Shown piece after piece: positions 2,737 to 24,846 of a stretch of 64,000 nucleotides of DNA. The position numbers and the translations under genes were made by a program. How positions within the stretch are numbered: position 1 is the stretch's first letter; each line of letters opens with the position of its first letter. Origin of the DNA: Sphingomonas sp. RT2P30. Its GTDB lineage: Bacteria > Pseudomonadota > Alphaproteobacteria > Sphingomonadales > Sphingomonadaceae. The stretch is taken from NCBI RefSeq assembly GCF_036663795.1, contig NZ_JAXOJP010000007.1:93882-157881 (forward strand). Direction: 5' to 3'. Under the pieces are notes generated by a model. The model was not told the DNA's origin. It made no database searches and saw only the letters and a list, made by a program, of their open reading frames with translations.

Positions 2737-3774
2737 TCAGCCTTTGTGCCGCGACTGGGCGATCCATTTGCCGCGGTAGCTACCCTGCATGCCGAACATC
2801 CAGCCGGGATATTCCGGCGCCAGCCGACTGGCCTCGTCGAGCGCGCGCAGCTCGGCCTCGCTGAGGTCGATCGCGACGGCGGCGAGATTGTCGTCGAGCT
2901 GGTCGGGGCGTTTGGCGCCGATGATCACGCTGGTGACGACCGGCTGGTGGAGCAGCCACGCCAGCGCGATCTGCGCGACGCTGACGCCGTGCGCCTTCGC
3001 GATCGGGTCCATCGCGTCGAGCACGGCATTGCCGCGCGTCTCGTCGACCGGCGGGAAGGTGAAGGCCTCGCGCCGCCCCTTGCCCTCGCCGCCGCGATAC
3101 TTGCCCGAGAGATAGCCGCCGGCGAGCGGGCTCCACACCATCAGGCCGAGCCCCTCGGACTGCATCATCGGCACCAGCTCGCGCTCGAGATCGCGGCCGA
3201 CCAAAGTGTAATAGGACTGCACCGACTGAAAGCGCGTCGCATTGGTGCGCTCGGCGATGCCCAGCGCCTTGGCGATCTGCCACGCCGCCCAGTTCGACAC
3301 GCCGACATAGCGGACATGGCCCTGGCGCACGAGATCGTCGAGCGCGCGCACCGTCTCCTCGATCGGCGTCGCGGCATCCCAGCCATGGATCTGGTAGAGG
3401 TCGATATGGTCGGTGTTGAGGCGTTTCAGGCTGGCCTTGACCTGATCCATCAGATGGCCGCGCGTGGCGCCGGAATCGAGCGGCCCTTCGCCCATCGTGC
3501 CGAACGCCTTGGTCGCCAGCACGACATCCTCGCGGCGCAGGCCGAGATTGCGGATCGCCTGGCCGGTGATCTCTTCCGACTGGCCGGCCGAATAGACATT
3601 GGCGGTGTCGATGAAATTGACCCCGGCATCGATCGCACCCTTGAGCAGCGCATCGGCCTCATCCTGGCCGAGCCCGGCGATCGCCGCAAAGCGCCCCGCC
3701 GAGCCGAAGGTCATCGTGCCGAGGCACAGCTCCGAGACGAACAGGCCGGTGCGGCCGAGCGGATTGTAGCGCAT
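2737..3774 (-). CDS. Aldo/keto reductase family oxidoreductase
   Basis: Starts MRYNPLGRTGLFVSELCLGTMTFG (AKR N-terminal signature), with IDTANVY and GVSNW motifs. The ORF-track start at 3900 is an upstream extension. Confidence 0.85.
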   Translation of the reverse strand: MRYNPLGRTGLFVSELCLGTMTFGSAGRFAAIAGLGQDEADALLKGAIDAGVNFIDTANVYSAGQSEEITGQAIRNLGLRREDVVLATKAFGTMGEGPLDSGATRGHLMDQVKASLKRLNTDHIDLYQIHGWDAATPIEETVRALDDLVRQGHVRYVGVSNWAAWQIAKALGIAERTNATRFQSVQSYYTLVGRDLERELVPMMQSEGLGLMVWSPLAGGYLSGKYRGGEGKGRREAFTFPPVDETRGNAVLDAMDPIAKAHGVSVAQIALAWLLHQPVVTSVIIGAKRPDQLDDNLAAVAIDLSEAELRALDEASRLAPEYPGWMFGMQGSYRGKWIAQSRHKG

Positions 3775-3874
3775 ATGTAATCCTTGTCGGAAAGACGGCC
3801 CCCGCCGTGAGCGGGATATGTGGGGCAGCCTGTCGGGCGGCAATGCCAGGCGCGAAATATTCCGGCGACGACCG

Positions 3875-4219
3875 TCAGGGAAAGCGGTGCGTGACTTCAA
3901 TCAGGCCGTGAATCGCGGCGTTGAACGCTCCGAGATCTTCGGCGGGAATCCAATATTCCTCATGCGCTCGGCCGCCGGCCTGTTCGACACGGTAATTTGC
4001 GAGAAAATCTTTGCCGACCGCAAAGCGCGTGACGAAGCCAGCGCCGCTCGCCGGTACGTTCCAGTCGCGTGCGATCTTGATCGCATAGGCTTCGGTGGTG
4101 ACGGGGTAGAAAATCGGCTGCCCGGGAAGGCGCGGCGGGAAGCCGGTCATGCCGCATTCCTCGATCAAGGCCAGCTCCTTGGGTCCCACCGGCCGCCAAA
4201 GAGTGACGGTGTCGCTCAT
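3875..4219 (-). CDS. Conserved hypothetical protein; ATGA-coupled to the proA stop
   Basis: 114-aa ORF from MSDTVTLWRPVGPKELALIEE. Globular-looking composition. The 4-nt start/stop overlap with proA suggests co-translation. Family not recognised. Confidence 0.45.
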   Translation of the reverse strand: MSDTVTLWRPVGPKELALIEECGMTGFPPRLPGQPIFYPVTTEAYAIKIARDWNVPASGAGFVTRFAVGKDFLANYRVEQAGGRAHEEYWIPAEDLGAFNAAIHGLIEVTHRFP

Positions 4220-5490
4220 GGCCTGATCTGCCCCGTCCCCCGCGCGACCCATTTATAGGTCGTCAGCCCTTCGAGCGCGACCGGGCCGCGCGCGTGGAGG
4301 CGGCCAGTGGCGATGCCGATCTCGGCGCCGAGACCGAACTCGCCGCCATCGGCGAACTGCGTGGAGGCGTTCCACAGCACGATCGCCGAATCGACGGCCG
4401 CGAGGAAGCGCTCGGCGACAGCTTCGTCATCGGCGACGATCGCATCGGTATGATGCGAGCCATGCGCCGCGATATGCGCCAGCGCGCCGTCAAGGCCGTC
4501 GACGATCGCGACCGAGGCGATCGCGTCGAGATATTCGGTGTCCCAGTCCTGCGCGCTCGCTTCGCCGATCGCGGGGACGAGCGCGCGCGCGCCCGCATCG
4601 CCGCGCACCGTGCAGCCGGCGGCGGCGAGCGCGGCGATCAGCGTCGCTGCCTGTGGGTAGGCGCAGTCGATCAGCAGCGTTTCCATCGCGCCGCACACCC
4701 CGGTGCGACGCAGCTTGGCGTTGATCGCGATCGCCTCGGCCATGGCCGGGTCGGCCGAGGCGTGTACGAAGACATGGTTGATCCCGTCGAGATGCGCGAG
4801 CACCGGCACGCGCGCCTCGGCTTGGACGCGCGCGACGAGGCTCTTGCCGCCGCGCGGGATGATAAGGTCGATCGCCCCCTCGGCCGCGAGCATCGCGCCG
4901 ACCGCCGCGCGATCGGTGACGGGGATGAGTTGCACGGCATCGACCGGCAGCCCCGCCGCGGCGAGCCCGGTCGTCAGCGCGGCGTGGATCGCGCGGTTGC
5001 TCTCAATCGCTTCGGAGCCGCCGCGCAGGATGACGGCATTGCCCGAGCCGATGCACAGGGCTGCGGCGTCGGCAGTGACGTTGGGGCGGCTTTCATAGAT
5101 GATGCCGATCACCCCGATCGGCACGCGTACCCGGCGCAGCACCAGCCCGTTGGCGGGGCGCGTCTCGTCGATCACCATGCCGACCGGATCGGCCAGCGTC
5201 GCGACCGTCGCGACGCCGTCGGCCATCGCGGTAACGCGCCCGGCATCGAGCTTCAGCCGGTCGAGCATCGCCGGCGACAGCCCGGCCGCCGCGCCCTTGG
5301 CCATGTCGATGGCATTGGCGGCAAGGATCGCCGGGCCGGCTGTGCGGAGCGCGTCGGCAATCGACACCAGGGCGGTCGCCTTGGTGGCACTCGACAGGCC
5401 GGCAAGTGTGGTCGCGGCGATACGCGCACGCGCACCCATCGCGGCGATCAGCGCGGCAGCATCGGTCTGGTGGTCGAAAGCGGTGGCCAT
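4216..5490 (-). CDS. proA: Gamma-glutamyl phosphate reductase ProA
   Basis: 424-aa protein from MATAFDH, with aldehyde dehydrogenase-fold ProA motifs (GLVLRRVRVPIGVIGIIYESRPNVT; CGAMETLLI). The ORF-track start at 5649 is an extension. Confidence 0.9.
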   Translation of the reverse strand: MATAFDHQTDAAALIAAMGARARIAATTLAGLSSATKATALVSIADALRTAGPAILAANAIDMAKGAAAGLSPAMLDRLKLDAGRVTAMADGVATVATLADPVGMVIDETRPANGLVLRRVRVPIGVIGIIYESRPNVTADAAALCIGSGNAVILRGGSEAIESNRAIHAALTTGLAAAGLPVDAVQLIPVTDRAAVGAMLAAEGAIDLIIPRGGKSLVARVQAEARVPVLAHLDGINHVFVHASADPAMAEAIAINAKLRRTGVCGAMETLLIDCAYPQAATLIAALAAAGCTVRGDAGARALVPAIGEASAQDWDTEYLDAIASVAIVDGLDGALAHIAAHGSHHTDAIVADDEAVAERFLAAVDSAIVLWNASTQFADGGEFGLGAEIGIATGRLHARGPVALEGLTTYKWVARGTGQIRP

Positions 5491-5528
5491 GGCGGGCGCG
5501 AATATCATGCACCGCGCGTCGGCCAAAG

Positions 5529-5563
5529 CCCCTATCGCTTTCGCGCCCCCTATCGCTTTCACG
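5529..5563. repeat. Tandem direct repeat, two 17-18-bp units with core CCTATCGCTTTC at period 18
   Basis: Sequence cccctatcgctttcgcg + ccccctatcgctttcacg. It lies between the divergent proA start (5490) and the DUF3667 ATG (5571). Confidence 0.6.
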
Positions 5564-5570
5564 CAAGGTA

Positions 5571-6665
5571 ATGATATCGACCGCTTCGATGAGCGGGGGA
5601 ATCGAAGCAGCGGGCGATATCGCCACCGGGGCCTTGCTGGGCCGCGCAATCGAGCCGCGCGCCGGCGAGGCAGCGGGCGGCGCGCACGGGCATGGCTTGT
5701 GTCTCAATTGCGGCACGGCACTGATCGGCGATTATTGCCATGCCTGCGGCCAGGGCGGCCATGTCCACCGCTCACTCGCCTCGATCGGGCACGACCTGCT
5801 GCACGGCGCGTTCCATTTCGAGGGCAAGATCTGGCGCACGCTGCCGATGCTGGTGCTGCATCCCGGCGCGCTGACGCGGCGCTATATCGCTGGCGAGCGC
5901 GCGCGCTTCGTCTCGCCGCTGGCGCTGTTCCTGTTCTTCGTTTTCCTGATGTTCGCGACGATCCACAGCTTTGGTGGCGAGTTGGAAGAGGTCGATGCAA
6001 CGCCCGCGGCACGGGTCGAGCGCATGGCCAAGTTCGACAAGGTCATCGCGGCGTCCGAGGAGCAACTCAAACGCGCCGAACAGAGCCAGGCAAAGGGCGG
6101 CCCGGATGCCCCCGACGCCGACGACATCGCGACCCTGCGCGGCACGATCGACGGCCTGAAGAAGACCCGCGATACCTTCGCGACGAGCAAGGACGGCAAG
6201 GAGCGCGTGACCTTCAGCACCTATCTCACCGGCTGGGCACCGCTCGACAAGGGCATCGCCAAGGCCAATGCCAATCCGGGTCTGGCGCTCTACAAGCTGC
6301 AGTCGAGCGCCTATAAATATAGCTGGGCGCTGATCCCCATTTCGGTGCCGTTCGTCGCCTTGCTGTTTCTGTGGAAGCGGCGCTACAAATTGTACGACCA
6401 CACCATCTTCGTCACCTACAGTCTGTCGTTCATGCTGCTGCTGGTGACGGTTTTCACGCTCGGCCTGGAAATTCACGCGCCAGGATGGATCCTCGGCCTG
6501 ATGCTCGGCTTCGGCCCGCCGGTGCATCTCTTCGCGCAGCTGCGCGGTGCCTATCAGCTGCGCAAACGCTCCGCCTTGTGGCGCACCGTAGCGCTGAGCA
6601 TGTTCGGCTTCGTTGCGCTCATGCTGTTCATAACGCTGCTGCTCGCGCTCGGCCTGATGGGGTGA
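5571..6665 (+). CDS. DUF3667-like membrane protein with an N-terminal zinc-ribbon
   Basis: CLNCGTALIGDYCHACGQ zinc ribbon followed by about five hydrophobic helices. The start is chosen at MISTASMSGG; the upstream extension is Arg-rich. It lies 45 nt upstream of the Hsp70 gene on the same strand. Confidence 0.65.
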   Translation: MISTASMSGGIEAAGDIATGALLGRAIEPRAGEAAGGAHGHGLCLNCGTALIGDYCHACGQGGHVHRSLASIGHDLLHGAFHFEGKIWRTLPMLVLHPGALTRRYIAGERARFVSPLALFLFFVFLMFATIHSFGGELEEVDATPAARVERMAKFDKVIAASEEQLKRAEQSQAKGGPDAPDADDIATLRGTIDGLKKTRDTFATSKDGKERVTFSTYLTGWAPLDKGIAKANANPGLALYKLQSSAYKYSWALIPISVPFVALLFLWKRRYKLYDHTIFVTYSLSFMLLLVTVFTLGLEIHAPGWILGLMLGFGPPVHLFAQLRGAYQLRKRSALWRTVALSMFGFVALMLFITLLLALGLMG

Positions 6666-6709
6666 TCGCACCGCGCCCGGCTCGGGGCGCGGATCAGGGA
6701 TAATCGCAG

Positions 6710-8407
6710 ATGATCATCGGTATCGACCTTGGCACCACCAACAGTGCCGCCGCGGTGTGGCGCGACGGCGCGGCGCAGCTGATTCCCAACCGGTTGGGTC
6801 ATGTCCTGACGCCGTCCGCCGTCAGCGTCGATGCCGACGGCACGATCGTCGTCGGGCTCGCCGCGCGCGAGCGCCAGGCGCATGACGCCGCCAATACCGT
6901 CACCGCCTTCAAGCGATATATGGGGACGCGGCGCACCACCAAGCTCGGCCGTCACAGCTTCACCGCCGAGGAACTGTCGGCGATCGTGCTGCGCTCCCTG
7001 AAGGAGGATGCCGAGGCCTTTCTCGGCGAGCCGGTGACCGAGGCGGTGATCACCGTGCCGGCCTATTTCAACGACAAGCAGCGCAAGGCGACCCACCGCG
7101 CGGGCGAACTGGCGGGGCTGAAGGTCGAGCGGCTGATCAACGAGCCGACCGCTGCCGCGCTGGCCTATGGTATCCAGAATCTCGACAGCGAATCGCGCTT
7201 CTTCGTGTTCGATCTCGGCGGCGGCACCTTCGACGTGTCGATCGTCGAGATCTTCGAGGGCGTGATCGAGGTGCGCGCCTCGACCGGCGACAACCGGCTC
7301 GGCGGCGAGGATTTCAACGACCTGCTGATCAACCTGATGCGCGACCATGTCGGCGCGGCGTGGCAGGCCGACCGGCTTGATGACGCGCTGCACCAGAAGA
7401 TCCGCGAACAGGCCGAGCGCGCGCGGCGCACGCTGAGCAGTGCCGGGTCGGCGACGATGACGGTGACGTGGCGTGACGAGACGCACAGCATGGATGTCGA
7501 TACCGCCACGTTCGAGGCGGCGGCCGCGCCGATGCTCGAGCGGTTGCGCGAGCCGGTGCTGCGCGCGCTGCGTGACAGCGAGATCAAGCCCGACGCGCTG
7601 TCGGAGATCATCCTGATCGGCGGGGCGACGCGCATGCCGCTGGTGCGGCGCGCGGTCGCGCGGATGTTCGGGCGTTTTCCCAATGCCAGCATCAACCCCG
7701 ACGAGGCGGTCGCACTCGGTGCGGCGGTCCAGGCCGGGCTCAAGGCCCGCGATGTGGCGCTGAAGGAAGTCGTCGTGACCGATGTCTGCCCCTATTCGCT
7801 CGGCGTCGACATGTCGCGTCACCTGCCGGGCGGCGGCGTCGAGACGGGCATCTTCGCCCCGATCATCGAGCGCAACACCGTCATCCCGGCGAGCCGCATG
7901 CACAGCTTCGGCACGATGCATGACAATCAGGCGGTGGTCGAGTTCGGCATCTTTCAGGGCGAAGCGCGCGCCGTCGCCGACAATGTCGAGATCGGCCGGA
8001 CCAAGGTGCGCGTCCCGCGCGGTCCAGCCGGACAGGCCGTCGATGTGCGCTTCTCCTACGACGTCAGCGGCCTGCTCGAGGTCGATATTGTCGTGCAGCA
8101 GACCGGCGAAAAGACCACGTTGGTGATCAACGACGATGCCGCCGGCGACGACGCCGCACTGGCCGGGCGGCGTGCGGCGCTCGCCGCGCTCAAGACGCAT
8201 CCGCGCGACAGCGAGGCCAATCGCGCGGCGCTGGCGCGCGGCGATCGTGCCTATGAGAATGCGCTGGGCGACCAGCGCGCGATGATCGACATGTTGATCA
8301 GCGAGTTTCGCGTCGCGATCGACGGGCAGGACCCGCGCGTCATCGAACAGGCGCGCGCGCGTTTCCAGTCCGCGATCGACGCGATCGAGGGCGAAACCTT
8401 TTTGTGA
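6710..8407 (+). CDS. Hsp70-family chaperone, HscC-like (short-lid DnaK paralogue)
   Basis: IGIDLGTTNSAAAV, DLGGGTFDVSIV and EIILIGGATRMPLV Hsp70 ATPase motifs. At 565 aa the substrate-binding lid is shortened, as in HscC. Its stop overlaps the J-protein start (GTGA). Confidence 0.85.
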   Translation: MIIGIDLGTTNSAAAVWRDGAAQLIPNRLGHVLTPSAVSVDADGTIVVGLAARERQAHDAANTVTAFKRYMGTRRTTKLGRHSFTAEELSAIVLRSLKEDAEAFLGEPVTEAVITVPAYFNDKQRKATHRAGELAGLKVERLINEPTAAALAYGIQNLDSESRFFVFDLGGGTFDVSIVEIFEGVIEVRASTGDNRLGGEDFNDLLINLMRDHVGAAWQADRLDDALHQKIREQAERARRTLSSAGSATMTVTWRDETHSMDVDTATFEAAAAPMLERLREPVLRALRDSEIKPDALSEIILIGGATRMPLVRRAVARMFGRFPNASINPDEAVALGAAVQAGLKARDVALKEVVVTDVCPYSLGVDMSRHLPGGGVETGIFAPIIERNTVIPASRMHSFGTMHDNQAVVEFGIFQGEARAVADNVEIGRTKVRVPRGPAGQAVDVRFSYDVSGLLEVDIVVQQTGEKTTLVINDDAAGDDAALAGRRAALAALKTHPRDSEANRAALARGDRAYENALGDQRAMIDMLISEFRVAIDGQDPRVIEQARARFQSAIDAIEGETFL

Positions 8408-10677
8408 AGAGCGCCTGGGCGATCCTCGGCGTCGCGCGCGGCGCGGATCGCGATACGATCCGCAAGGCCTATGCGCGCAAGCTCAAACTGACCAACCCCG
8501 AGGACGATCCGGAAGGGTTCAAGCAACTGCGCGCCGCCTATGAGCAGGCGCTCGAGGCGCTGCGCTGGGCGCAGTTCGACTTCGACGACGAGGACGCCGG
8601 GCAGGAAGACGATGCGGCTGTAAGTGACGGGCCGGTCGATGATGCGCGTTGGACGGAACCGGCGCATGGGGAGGCAGCCGCGCCCGGCGGCATCCTCACC
8701 GTTGAAGAGCAGACGCGGATCGACGAACTCGCTGCCTTCAACGAGATTGCCCGGGGGCTGGCCGCGTTGCTCGAAGCACCCGAGCGCGATGACCGCGCGG
8801 TCGAGCGGCAATTCGCTGCCTTTCGCCAGGCGCCGGCACTGACCGAGATCGCCGTACGCGCATCCGCCGAGACCTGGCTTGCCGACCTGCTCGCCCGCAC
8901 CATCCCGCAAAGCGACGCGATCCTGCGTCAGGCGACCGATCTGTTCGGCTGGAACGACAGCCGGCGGCAATCCTGGTCGGTCATGCGCATCCTGGCGCGG
9001 CTCGACGAATGGCAGCTGATCGCCGCGCTCGGTCGGTCGGACCATCGGTTGCATCGTGGCTGGCTCGCCCTGCGCCGCCCGTTAAAGGGCGATCTGGCGT
9101 GGCGGCTGCGGACGCTCACGCCCGGCGTCGCAGACCAGGTGCGGGCGTTGCTCGCGCGCATCGATGGCGATGCGCCGGGGGTGGCCTATTCGCTCGACCC
9201 CGGCGCCGTGACGCGCTGGCGCGCCTGGCTTGCCGAGCCGCGCATCACTCCCGGCAAGCTGATCGCCGCGCCGATCGGGCTGGCGATCGTCTGGCTGTTC
9301 GCGCGGCTAGTTGCGCCGGGCGCGTGGCGCAATATGGCCCTGGGGCTGGGCGCGGGCGTCGCTTTGTTCCTGCCGGTGCTGCTGCTGGTCGGCGAGCGGC
9401 TGCGGCACCGGATCGTAACGCGCTCGCCATGGCGCGAACATGGCTGGATCGCCGCCTATGTTCTTGCGGCGGTGGTGGTGTTGCTGACCCCGCCGGGTAC
9501 GGTCGCGGCGATGGTCGTGGCGATGCTGGCGATGATCGCCGGGTTGTGGATCGGCTTGCAGCGCGATCCGGACGCGCCGATCGCAATGGGGCGCGGCAGG
9601 ACGATCTGGCTGACATTGCTCTACGTGGCGGGTGTCGCCGCCGTCGGTTTTCTGCGCATCGAGCCCTCATCGGCGCTGATTCTTGGCGTGGTGCTGCCGC
9701 TCTACCCGTTGATGCGGATCATCGCGTGGCAGGGGCTGACGCGCTGGCTGGGGGCGTGGCGGCCGCTGTGGCGCGATGTCGGCCTGACGCTCGCTGTCGT
9801 CGCTGCCGTGATCCTCACCGCAACCGGCGGCGCGGTGCGGACGCATTTCGGTACCGGTGTGATGGACGAACTGCTCGTTGCGGGCCTGGTCGGTGGCATC
9901 CTGATCCTGCCGCCGACATCGCTCCTGGGCGGCTTTGGCAGCGGTTGGGGCAAGCTGGTCCATTTCATCGTCGTGCGCGGGCTGACCGTGGCGCTGATCG
10001 CGACCATTTCCGGTGTGCTGTTGAACGATGATCGCGGTCGTACGGCGCTGGGCGACGACCTGTCGCCCAGTGCCACGGTCGAGCGCCGCGCAGATCGACT
10101 GCTCGGCGACATCCAGCGCAGCGAGCCGGGTTTCGCGCGAATCGCAGCCGGCAACCCGTCGCTCTTTGCGGCGATGCGCGCGACGGTGCATCGCGACGTG
10201 CGCGAACGGCGCAGCGAGAATGTCATCCGCGACCTGAATGCACAGATCGCCGAGCGCTTCGCCGTGTTGCTGCCGGCAGCGAGCGATGCCCAGCTGGCCG
10301 AGGAATTGCGCATCAGGCTGGCCGAACGCCAGGCGCTTCAGGCGCGCGACCCGGCGGCCTGCGCCGATGCGGACCGTTCGTCGCTGCCGCCGGCGCTCGC
10401 CGCGCGGCGCAAGGCGCTGGTGTTCGACGTGCTCGCCCACCCGCCCGCGACCCCGCCCGGCGGCGGTCACGCGCTGACGAGTCGTCGCCTGATCGAAGAG
10501 GCGATGCGCAAGGACGGGCTGAGCGTTCCCGAGCTCAATCGCCTGTTCGCTGACGATGCCGGCCCCGCCGCGCGCTGCCGCGCCGCGCTCGTCTATCTCG
10601 GCGCGCTCGCGGCGCACACCGACAGGGACATCGCCGCAACGCTTCGCGCCGAACGCAAGGCGGCGAAGCGGCCCTGA
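8404..10677 (+). CDS. J-domain (DnaJ-like) polytopic membrane protein, probable co-chaperone of the adjacent Hsp70
   Basis: N-terminal J domain ([45 protein letters not shown]; HPD degenerated to NPED) and about 7-8 predicted TM helices (residues ~280-530). A C-terminal soluble domain follows. GTG start overlaps the Hsp70 stop. Confidence 0.75.
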   Translation: MKSAWAILGVARGADRDTIRKAYARKLKLTNPEDDPEGFKQLRAAYEQALEALRWAQFDFDDEDAGQEDDAAVSDGPVDDARWTEPAHGEAAAPGGILTVEEQTRIDELAAFNEIARGLAALLEAPERDDRAVERQFAAFRQAPALTEIAVRASAETWLADLLARTIPQSDAILRQATDLFGWNDSRRQSWSVMRILARLDEWQLIAALGRSDHRLHRGWLALRRPLKGDLAWRLRTLTPGVADQVRALLARIDGDAPGVAYSLDPGAVTRWRAWLAEPRITPGKLIAAPIGLAIVWLFARLVAPGAWRNMALGLGAGVALFLPVLLLVGERLRHRIVTRSPWREHGWIAAYVLAAVVVLLTPPGTVAAMVVAMLAMIAGLWIGLQRDPDAPIAMGRGRTIWLTLLYVAGVAAVGFLRIEPSSALILGVVLPLYPLMRIIAWQGLTRWLGAWRPLWRDVGLTLAVVAAVILTATGGAVRTHFGTGVMDELLVAGLVGGILILPPTSLLGGFGSGWGKLVHFIVVRGLTVALIATISGVLLNDDRGRTALGDDLSPSATVERRADRLLGDIQRSEPGFARIAAGNPSLFAAMRATVHRDVRERRSENVIRDLNAQIAERFAVLLPAASDAQLAEELRIRLAERQALQARDPAACADADRSSLPPALAARRKALVFDVLAHPPATPPGGGHALTSRRLIEEAMRKDGLSVPELNRLFADDAGPAARCRAALVYLGALAAHTDRDIAATLRAERKAAKRP

Positions 10678-24777: not shown

Positions 24778-24846
24778 TTCTATGCTCCAAGGTTGATTGC
24801 CGGCAGATAGGGGCTAGGACCGGCTCGGTACAAGCGAGAGGACCGC

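Follow-up and report, generated by a model that had tools for sequence, protein, structure and literature searches.

The 64,000-nt stretch of DNA analysed here (the window; Sphingomonas sp. RT2P30, contig NZ_JAXOJP010000007.1, positions 93,882 to 157,881) carries a gene for an Hsp70 of the HscC type, hscC, whose TGA stop codon overlaps, as GTGA, the GTG start of an open reading frame (ORF) for a 757-aa polytopic membrane protein with an N-terminal J-like domain. This pair, hscC-J, is a new membrane-integral variant of the Escherichia coli HscC-DjlB/DjlC system in which the histidine of the canonical His-Pro-Asp (HPD) motif is missing, and its membrane partner belongs to a large family without prior study. 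We consider it probable that the unit is a two-gene, translationally coupled module, formed by an HscC-type Hsp70 and a membrane-integral co-chaperone of the DjlB/DjlC subclass, and that the DUF3667 gene immediately upstream is a bystander. A previous reading of the same DNA, made without database searches (the sequence-only reading), had described three ORFs on the forward strand as one operon. The three ORFs were confirmed at their coordinates (Table 1), as was the GTGA coupling of the Hsp70 gene to the gene for the J-type membrane protein, while the three-gene operon was not sustained as the functional unit.

Conservation of the hscC-J pair

Synteny was assessed across 84 family loci from Sphingomonadales, Caulobacterales, Rhodospirillales, Steroidobacteraceae and Puniceicoccaceae. 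An HscC orthologue (58-98% identical) was found directly upstream of the J gene, on the same strand and at a distance of <=35 nt, in 81 of the 84 loci. The exceptions were L037, with a spacing of 142 nt; L045, from a Phenylobacterium metagenome-assembled genome (MAG), where hscC is truncated or disrupted; and L073 (Caulobacter sp. SLTY), with no hscC within 6 kb. Independent gene calls placed the 4-nt hscC/J overlap in four of five metagenomic or genomic loci (L002-L005). Clustering of the flanking ORFs found no third conserved partner gene shared across lineages, and synteny beyond the pair was lineage-specific only.

A word-indexed search returned 20 relatives of the 757-aa protein, while an exhaustive profile search of 1.84 billion clusters at 50% identity returned 9,418 hits at E <= 1e-3, 4,865 at E <= 1e-10 and 911 at E <= 1e-30. 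The weaker profile hits may include matches to the J-domain only, and the family is put at no fewer than the 911 clusters found at E <= 1e-30; the idea of a rare orphan family, which the word-indexed search alone might have suggested, was rejected on these figures. Most of the top matches were of a short form covering profile positions 1 to ~545. The form with the C-terminal domain of the window protein (C-domain) was in the minority (42 of 168 proteins), and other members bear different C-terminal extensions. A scan seeded with a pattern and covering a single genome of each species gave 499 confirmed stretches, of which the best 79 loci came from Sphingomonas and other Sphingomonadales, Caulobacter, Asticcacaulis, Phenylobacterium and Terricaulis, as well as Nitrospirillum, Azospirillum, Steroidobacteraceae and one Puniceicoccaceae MAG. 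Members are annotated at best as 'J domain-containing protein', and the window product matches 'hypothetical protein U1839_09735' of Sphingomonas sp. RT2P30 at 100% identity. No paper on a multi-pass J-like family was found; Barriot et al. 2020 (J Mol Biol), which lay outside the literature covered, may list the architecture.

Both the 20 homologues and, subsequently, 150 cluster representatives aligned end to end with the 757-aa protein, so that the ORF is not an annotation fusion, the possibility that the sequence-only reading had named as one that would refute it. The broader proposal that it is a gene fusion or a spurious high-GC ORF, or that the locus is a mobile or defence element, can be given almost no credence. 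The window is ~67% GC and contains many long shadow ORFs, which would favour a spurious call; however, full-length collinear homologues exist in hundreds of clusters, the AlphaFold2 model is confident, and the flanking genes (proA, ftsH and tilS) are housekeeping genes. PADLOC returned no match for any of the four proteins of the region (DUF3667, Hsp70, 757-aa and 122-aa), and a defence system was rejected on this result.

The DUF3667 gene as a resident neighbour

The product of the gene upstream of hscC matched PF12412 along the whole profile (61.5 bits against a cutoff of 27; positions 1-45 of 45), which upholds its earlier assignment to DUF3667. The protein has its zinc ribbon (CxxC...CxxC) at aa 44-59 and is hydrophobic in about four segments. 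An operon of three genes, in which this protein would work with HscC and the J-protein as, for example, a client or adaptor, draws on the local arrangement: the genes lie on the same strand, the spacer between DUF3667 and hscC is 44 nt (not 45, as first read), and no convincing terminator separates them. The gap contains a GC hairpin (6671-6692) without a T-tract that is no better than shuffled sequence (z = -1.6), and because no significant terminator was found, co-transcription of the two genes is possible in RT2P30. The tight arrangement recurs in L010-L013, the clade of the window, and in S. gilva (L015); these were the only loci with such spacing, and in them the small gene encoding a 122-aa secreted protein lies past the J gene.

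Comparison across loci argues against the operon. A DUF3667 gene was present in just 27 of the 84 loci, all of them sphingomonad and all flanked by proA (mostly by ftsH as well), and was absent from every non-sphingomonad locus, including those of Caulobacter, Asticcacaulis and Nitrospirillum. In most of the 27 loci, DUF3667 and hscC are 430-560 nt apart, and the 122-aa gene lies in the interval on the opposite strand. Conversely, S. koreensis has proA and DUF3667 but lacks hscC-J: its order is proA, DUF3667, three unrelated genes (one Slam-like), ftsH and tilS. Furthermore, DUF3667 orthologues are 60-93% identical within a genus across which the J-protein is only ~30% identical, indicating that the two genes evolve differently; homologues of DUF3667 number more than 7,252. 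Gene-neighbourhood conservation therefore holds for the hscC-J pair and fails for DUF3667 as its third member, which belongs to a Sphingomonas synteny block only, and we regard the three-gene operon as quite unlikely.

The cassette stays together even though its place relative to DUF3667 and the 122-aa gene shifts. Judged by synteny, hscC-J is a self-contained cassette in a variable interval, with DUF3667 as its resident neighbour or bystander. The interval between proA/DUF3667 and ftsH appears to be a variable insertion spot in Sphingomonas; in S. koreensis (L089, 8224-10641) the place of hscC-J is taken by genes for proteins of 226 aa and 99 aa and by one of the Slam/SlipAM type.

The Hsp70 partner

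The window Hsp70 was aligned with E. coli DnaK, HscA and HscC (from NC_000913). It matched PF00012 at E = 1e-137 (profile positions 1-510 of 599), and in BLASTP comparisons it scored higher against E. coli HscC (43% identity, 456 bits, 14 gaps) than against E. coli DnaK (36% identity, 322 bits, 67 gaps). HscCs were defined in Mayer's review by a length of 550-580 aa and a set of insertions and deletions (PMC8215388). At 565 aa the window protein falls within this range, and every HscC-specific insertion or deletion relative to DnaK and HscA was also present in it. Those common to the window Hsp70 and E. coli HscC include a deletion of ~24 residues in lobe I of the nucleotide-binding domain (NBD; DnaK 76-101), a small deletion beside the D211 loop, the absence of the GrpE-signature loop (a gap of 6 residues at DnaK 'ADATGPKH'), an insertion in loop L1,2 of the beta part of the substrate-binding domain (SBD-beta; 9 aa in the window protein, 4 in E. 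coli HscC), an 11-column gap in lid helix B (the defining deletion being ~9 residues) and a short C-terminal tail. Among NCBIfam matches there was no HscC-specific model, and none of the DnaK and HscA models reached its cutoff.

On its shared insertions and deletions and its best BLAST match, the window Hsp70 is an HscC orthologue, and the earlier description of it as HscC-like was borne out. The lid is not simply truncated, however, as that description had it, but carries the HscC-specific 11-residue deletion in helix B together with a short tail. DnaK residues R167, Q378 and P419 contact the HPD motif (PMC8215388). These residues, together with N170 and T173, are kept in the window HscC, while D477 and D481 of DnaK are replaced in it, as they are in E. 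coli HscC.

A J-like domain with an xPE triad

The J region of the 757-aa protein was 46% identical to DjlC over 72 aa (BLASTP, E = 4e-13), and the N-termini of DjlB and DjlC ('...HPETDPQGFKxLRQAYEEAL') have a direct counterpart in the window protein ('...NPEDDPEGFKQLRAAYEQAL'). The AlphaFold model of the protein (mean predicted local distance difference test score, pLDDT, of 77.5) contains the J fold, with helices at residues 4-8, 16-29 and 36-61 and with N31-P32-E33 in a loop; helix II is basic as read from the sequence (R20, K21, R25, K26 and K28). The model has no helix IV, helix III running to residue 61 and being followed by disorder, and the match to the Pfam DnaJ profile PF00226 (residues 5-47) likewise ends at profile position 51 of 63. 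E. coli DjlB (21.1 bits) and DjlC (19.3 bits) matched the same profile span, and both remained below the cutoff.

The position of the HPD motif reads N31-P32-E33-D34 in the window protein, which consequently does not have HPD. P32, E33, D34, D35, G38 and F39 were invariant in all 20 aligned homologues, and N31 was nearly so, one homologue having Q. A regular expression for the triad was then applied to 168 proteins (164 family members from the first and exhaustive searches, plus four firmicute proteins with tetratricopeptide repeats, TPR) and counted NPE in 111, HPE in 24, QPE in 10, RPE in 3 and SPE in 1. It missed the remaining 19, most of which, among those inspected, had NPE followed by 'AF', with a few being DPE or degenerate. 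Across the family, these counts indicate that 'PE' is fixed and the first residue free, the histidine being dispensable. The locus scan gave NPE:HPE as 77:6, a ratio biased by the NPEDD pattern with which that scan was seeded. By the counts over the 168 proteins, NPE is the majority state of the family and not a one-off alteration. The change from HPD to NPED noted in the sequence-only reading was thus correctly read, yet it is the family norm, and DjlB and DjlC themselves already have HPE.

Taken together, sequence and model indicate that the domain is a J fold of the HscC-specific DjlB/DjlC subtype, without helix IV and without the histidine. According to a 2026 review, HPD tolerates no change other than that to HPE, and the remaining departures from it are enigmatic (PMC13254874). 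A survey of 280,000 sequences dropped those without HPD from its main dataset and put HPE at ~1%, including DjlB and DjlC (PMC10410713). The present family was probably overlooked because such surveys removed non-HPD sequences and because its domain falls below the Pfam cutoff.

Architecture and topology of the membrane partner

Following the J-like domain, the 757-aa protein consists of an acidic linker, a cytoplasmic helical domain, a block of transmembrane (TM) helices and a C-domain (Table 1). The linker (59-96) varied in length and sequence among homologues. The helical domain (97-282) was modelled with a pLDDT of 84-93 over most of its length and has invariant E156, P168, D171, W183, R199, L223 and W272. 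Hydropathy and the AlphaFold model concurred on nine TM helices (aa 283-541), in place of the seven to eight counted previously, and the C-terminal part is ~215 aa with a folded domain at 555-755, in place of a soluble domain of ~230 aa. Averaged over the family, K+R counts were 4.0, 1.7, 3.7 and 1.9 in the inside loops and 0.5, 0, 0.5 and 0.9 in the outside loops, an alternation that fits an N-in topology with nine spans. By a crude count, the short forms (~550-600 aa) most often had ten hydrophobic segments and a short K/R-rich tail, while the forms with the C-domain most often had nine.

From this topology and from its cysteines we would place the C-domain in the periplasm with reasonable, though not full, confidence. 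All 41 C-domains examined had exactly two cysteines in the same two columns (C653 and C725 in the window protein, where they are the sole cysteines), and the domain of the long form is predicted to be of the disulfide type. Modelled alone it reached a pLDDT of 88.9 and a predicted template modelling score (pTM) of 0.83, and neither a PDB profile search nor Foldseek found a solved structural or sequence relative. A profile search of a 5.8-billion-sequence protein database also came back empty, probably because Ala-rich sequences swamped its candidate filter. Comparison of the model with known structures matched no transporter or enzyme fold to the TM block. Two members, P0085 and P0167, keep the conserved N-domain and the two-Cys C-domain and have lost the PE of the triad; they may be Hsp70-independent offshoots.

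The TM block raises the question of whether the membrane protein is its own client. According to this alternative, the 9/10-TM block would be a channel, transporter or sensor, and the J-domain would recruit HscC to the Arg-rich cytoplasmic loops of the same protein, so that HscC gates or remodels it. The TM block is indeed the best-conserved architectural feature, in that most of the 150 representatives listed cover positions 1 to ~545; the cytoplasmic loops are K/R-rich and HscC favours positive peptides (PMC8215388); and fusions of HPE J-domains with Na/Ca-exchanger domains are on record in the literature (PMC10410713). However, the TM block belongs to no Pfam family, no charged or polar residue within it was invariant across the 20 homologues (W348 and W382 being the only near-invariant positions), and the positive-inside rule explains the loop charge equally well. 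We consider a self-client arrangement rather unlikely.

Comparison with known systems

The closest known system is E. coli HscC with DjlC and DjlB (YbeV/YbeS). The Hsp70s are of the same subfamily, sharing all HscC insertions and deletions, and the J-domains are of the same subtype ('W-x-IL ... IR+AY ... xPE-x-DP-x-GF-K-x-LR-x-AYE'), being 46% identical, below the Pfam cutoff and devoid of helix IV in both cases. Both kinds of partner are membrane-bound, and their genes are adjacent to hscC. The two systems also differ. The triad is HPE in DjlB and DjlC and NPE in the window protein. DjlB and DjlC are 475-483 aa long with one C-terminal tail anchor, unlike the window protein with its nine TM helices and probably periplasmic domain, so that the contrast drawn in the sequence-only reading between a singly anchored DjlC and a multi-pass partner was correct. 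The djlC and hscC genes of E. coli are convergent and stand apart, whereas hscC and the J gene of the window overlap by 4 nt. Lastly, each E. coli djl gene is coupled to a DUF1266 gene and has Sel1 genes nearby, neither of which was seen among the conserved neighbours of hscC-J.

A third type of partner was found in firmicute (Clostridia-type) TPR proteins (P0021-P0024), whose 'TNPEDDPEGF' J-like domain is the same, at 56% identity over 50 aa. The gene for such a protein (L006, 4279-9246) lies directly downstream of a gene for an Hsp70 of HscC length (564 aa), which shares 46% identity with the HscC of the window. These proteins differ in being soluble, 1,000-1,136 aa long, with the Pfam domain DjlB_C_2nd and without a TM block, and on their sequences they are the soluble counterpart of the membrane family. 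Given the adjacency of TPR and Hsp70 genes, three types of partner (tail-anchored, TPR and multi-pass) share one J-subtype and one Hsp70 subtype.

Other membrane J-proteins are more distant. DjlA, an inner-membrane class C J-protein of E. coli, brings DnaK to the membrane and is linked to envelope signalling (Rcs/capsule). It has one N-terminal TM helix and a canonical C-terminal HPD J-domain, and its partner is DnaK, not HscC. Tim14/Pam18-Tim16/Pam16, Sec63 and DNAJC22 are eukaryotic or mitochondrial, with other Hsp70s and other TM architectures, and have no sequence relationship to the window protein past the J fold.

Activity of the His-less domain and a proposed mechanism

Several observations weigh against reading the J-like domain as an HscC co-chaperone of the DjlC kind. 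The domain scored 23.6 bits against PF00226, below the cutoff of 27.8, and lacks helix IV. The substitution H33Q abolishes ATPase stimulation in every canonical J-domain system tested (PMC8215388; PMC13254874), and so Asn, Gln, Arg or Ser at this position may mean a different or weaker action. For the region following the J-like domain, BLAST found nothing in common with DjlB or DjlC, and hhalign paired 'TIPQSDAILRQATDLFGW' with DjlB 'HLSFECVVLLAERLRW' at a weak E = 0.22; precomputed Pfam annotation listed no DjlB domains in P0001-P0020. In addition, P0085 and P0167 reach the C-domain after two hydrophobic segments and have a degenerate triad (IDVDADP), which muddies the topology argument.

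These points touch on the alternative that the NPE domain lacks catalytic activity, as a type IV or pseudo-J domain, and only tethers HscC, holds it inactive or acts independently of Hsp70, in the manner of Tim16/Pam16. The HPD histidine is considered essential, with HPE alone tolerated (PMC13254874), and in this family the first position of the triad is variable (N, H, Q, R, S or D); the sub-cutoff Pfam score and the missing helix IV point the same way. On the other hand, little or no variation is seen in P-E-D-D-x-x-G-F and in the basic helix II, the linkage to hscC is near-obligate and translationally coupled, and DjlC, the closest characterised relative, stimulates HscC (PMC8215388). HscC also retains the D35 partners R167 and Q378 and the P34 partner P419, and H33 contacts only a backbone carbonyl (PMC8215388), a role that an Asn or Gln amide could serve in a co-evolved partner. 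We thus give a dead domain a minor but real chance and return to the two-gene co-chaperone module as the probable reading.

The mechanism proposed for this module draws on three properties of the E. coli system: DjlC is alone among J-proteins in stimulating the ATPase of HscC, tail anchors attach DjlB and DjlC to the membrane, and the peptides that HscC prefers are positively charged (PMC8215388). A role of HscC with membrane proteins has also been proposed (PMC8215388). The J-like domain, with its xPE loop between basic helix II and helix III, the acidic flexible linker and the helical domain would lie in the cytoplasm, nine helices would span the inner membrane and, in the long form only, an all-alpha domain predicted to be of the disulfide type would face the periplasm. 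The J-like domain would dock on the NBD/linker/SBD-beta interface of HscC, where contact residues are retained, and would trigger ATP hydrolysis as E. coli DjlC (HPE) does for HscC. HscC would thereby be concentrated at the cytoplasmic face of the inner membrane, where it may clamp basic segments, either of membrane proteins or of the Arg-rich loops of its own partner. The helical domain and the TM block would select the client or the site, and through the periplasmic domain this activity may be linked to envelope state. A stronger version, in which His-less xPE domains are fully competent triggers of the HscC ATPase and HscC is a trans-envelope device gated via the C-domain and TM block, is at present a doubtful extension that we put forward tentatively.

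Flanking genes and transcription signals

The features of the locus are collected in Table 1. The 122-aa protein has a signal peptide (MRRSVLVVAAVAAAMMPLAAQA) and two cysteines close to its C-terminus, and it had no Pfam, NCBIfam or PADLOC match. Homologues occurred in 26 Sphingomonas loci at 40-49% identity (74-99% in the clade of the window), with the gene mostly between DUF3667 and hscC; in the window clade and S. gilva it instead separates the J gene from ftsH.

A pattern search of the region found no sigma-70 or sigma-32-like promoters near the genes of the hscC-J locus. An RpoH-like alphaproteobacterial promoter pattern (CTTG-N15-19-CYTATNT) matched once in the window, at 24805-24834 (-), with ~0.1 chance matches expected; this match has no connection with the hscC locus. 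Two copies of a 14-nt direct repeat (CCCCTATCGCTTTC), with an 18-nt period, lie at 5529-5560; they occupy most of the 62-nt divergent intergenic region between proA and DUF3667 and could be an operator or promoter element. Between nadD and proA the window contains an ORF for an aldo-keto reductase (2737-3900, -) and another, of 125 aa and unassigned (3875-4252, -), and in some relatives this gap holds a ParE/RHH toxin-antitoxin pair (L001, 2683-3218; L089, 3959-4497).

Table 1. Features of the hscC-J locus and its flanks, in window coordinates.
Feature	Position	Strand	Remarks
proA	boundary at 5508	-	divergent from DUF3667
DUF3667 zinc-ribbon membrane protein gene	5571-6665	+	PF12412; neighbour outside the conserved module
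hscC, HscC-type Hsp70, 565 aa	6710-8407	+	PF00012
Polytopic membrane J-like protein gene, 757 aa (DjlB/C-class J-domain)	8404-10677	+	GTG start
J-like domain, aa 1-58	8404-8577	+	helices I-III, no helix IV
N31-P32-E33 triad at the HPD position	8494-8502	+	loop between helices II and III
Acidic disordered linker, aa 59-96	8578-8691	+	pLDDT < 50
Conserved cytoplasmic all-alpha domain (predicted), aa 97-282	8692-9249	+	in all family members
Nine-TM-helix block, aa 283-541	9250-10026	+	hydropathy and AlphaFold model
Linker, aa 542-554			AlphaFold model
All-alpha C-terminal domain, aa 555-757	10066-10674	+	probably periplasmic; invariant C653/C725
Small secreted protein gene, 122 aa	10709-11077	-	signal peptide, 2 Cys
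ftsH, tilS	downstream of the 122-aa gene	-	housekeeping flank

Significance

Of the three types of bacterial Hsp70, HscC is the one understood least, its clients being undefined two decades on (PMC8215388). In many Alphaproteobacteria it is hard-wired through translational coupling to a multi-pass membrane partner, which strengthens the idea of a membrane site of action. The strict conservation of P-E alongside a variable histidine position across hundreds of clusters argues for selection and not decay. With just two genes, defined domains and a soluble fragment that is an obvious choice for assays, the hscC-J cassette is also a tractable system, and while the locus brings no new principle, it provides a concrete handle on the role of HscC and on whether non-HPD J-domains work. 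If His-less xPE domains were competent, the view that only HPD and HPE function would be overturned. If the trans-envelope reading were true, the state of the periplasm or membrane would gate the place and time at which HscC clamps basic segments on the cytoplasmic side of membrane proteins, giving HscC a defined job in membrane-protein quality control or signalling.

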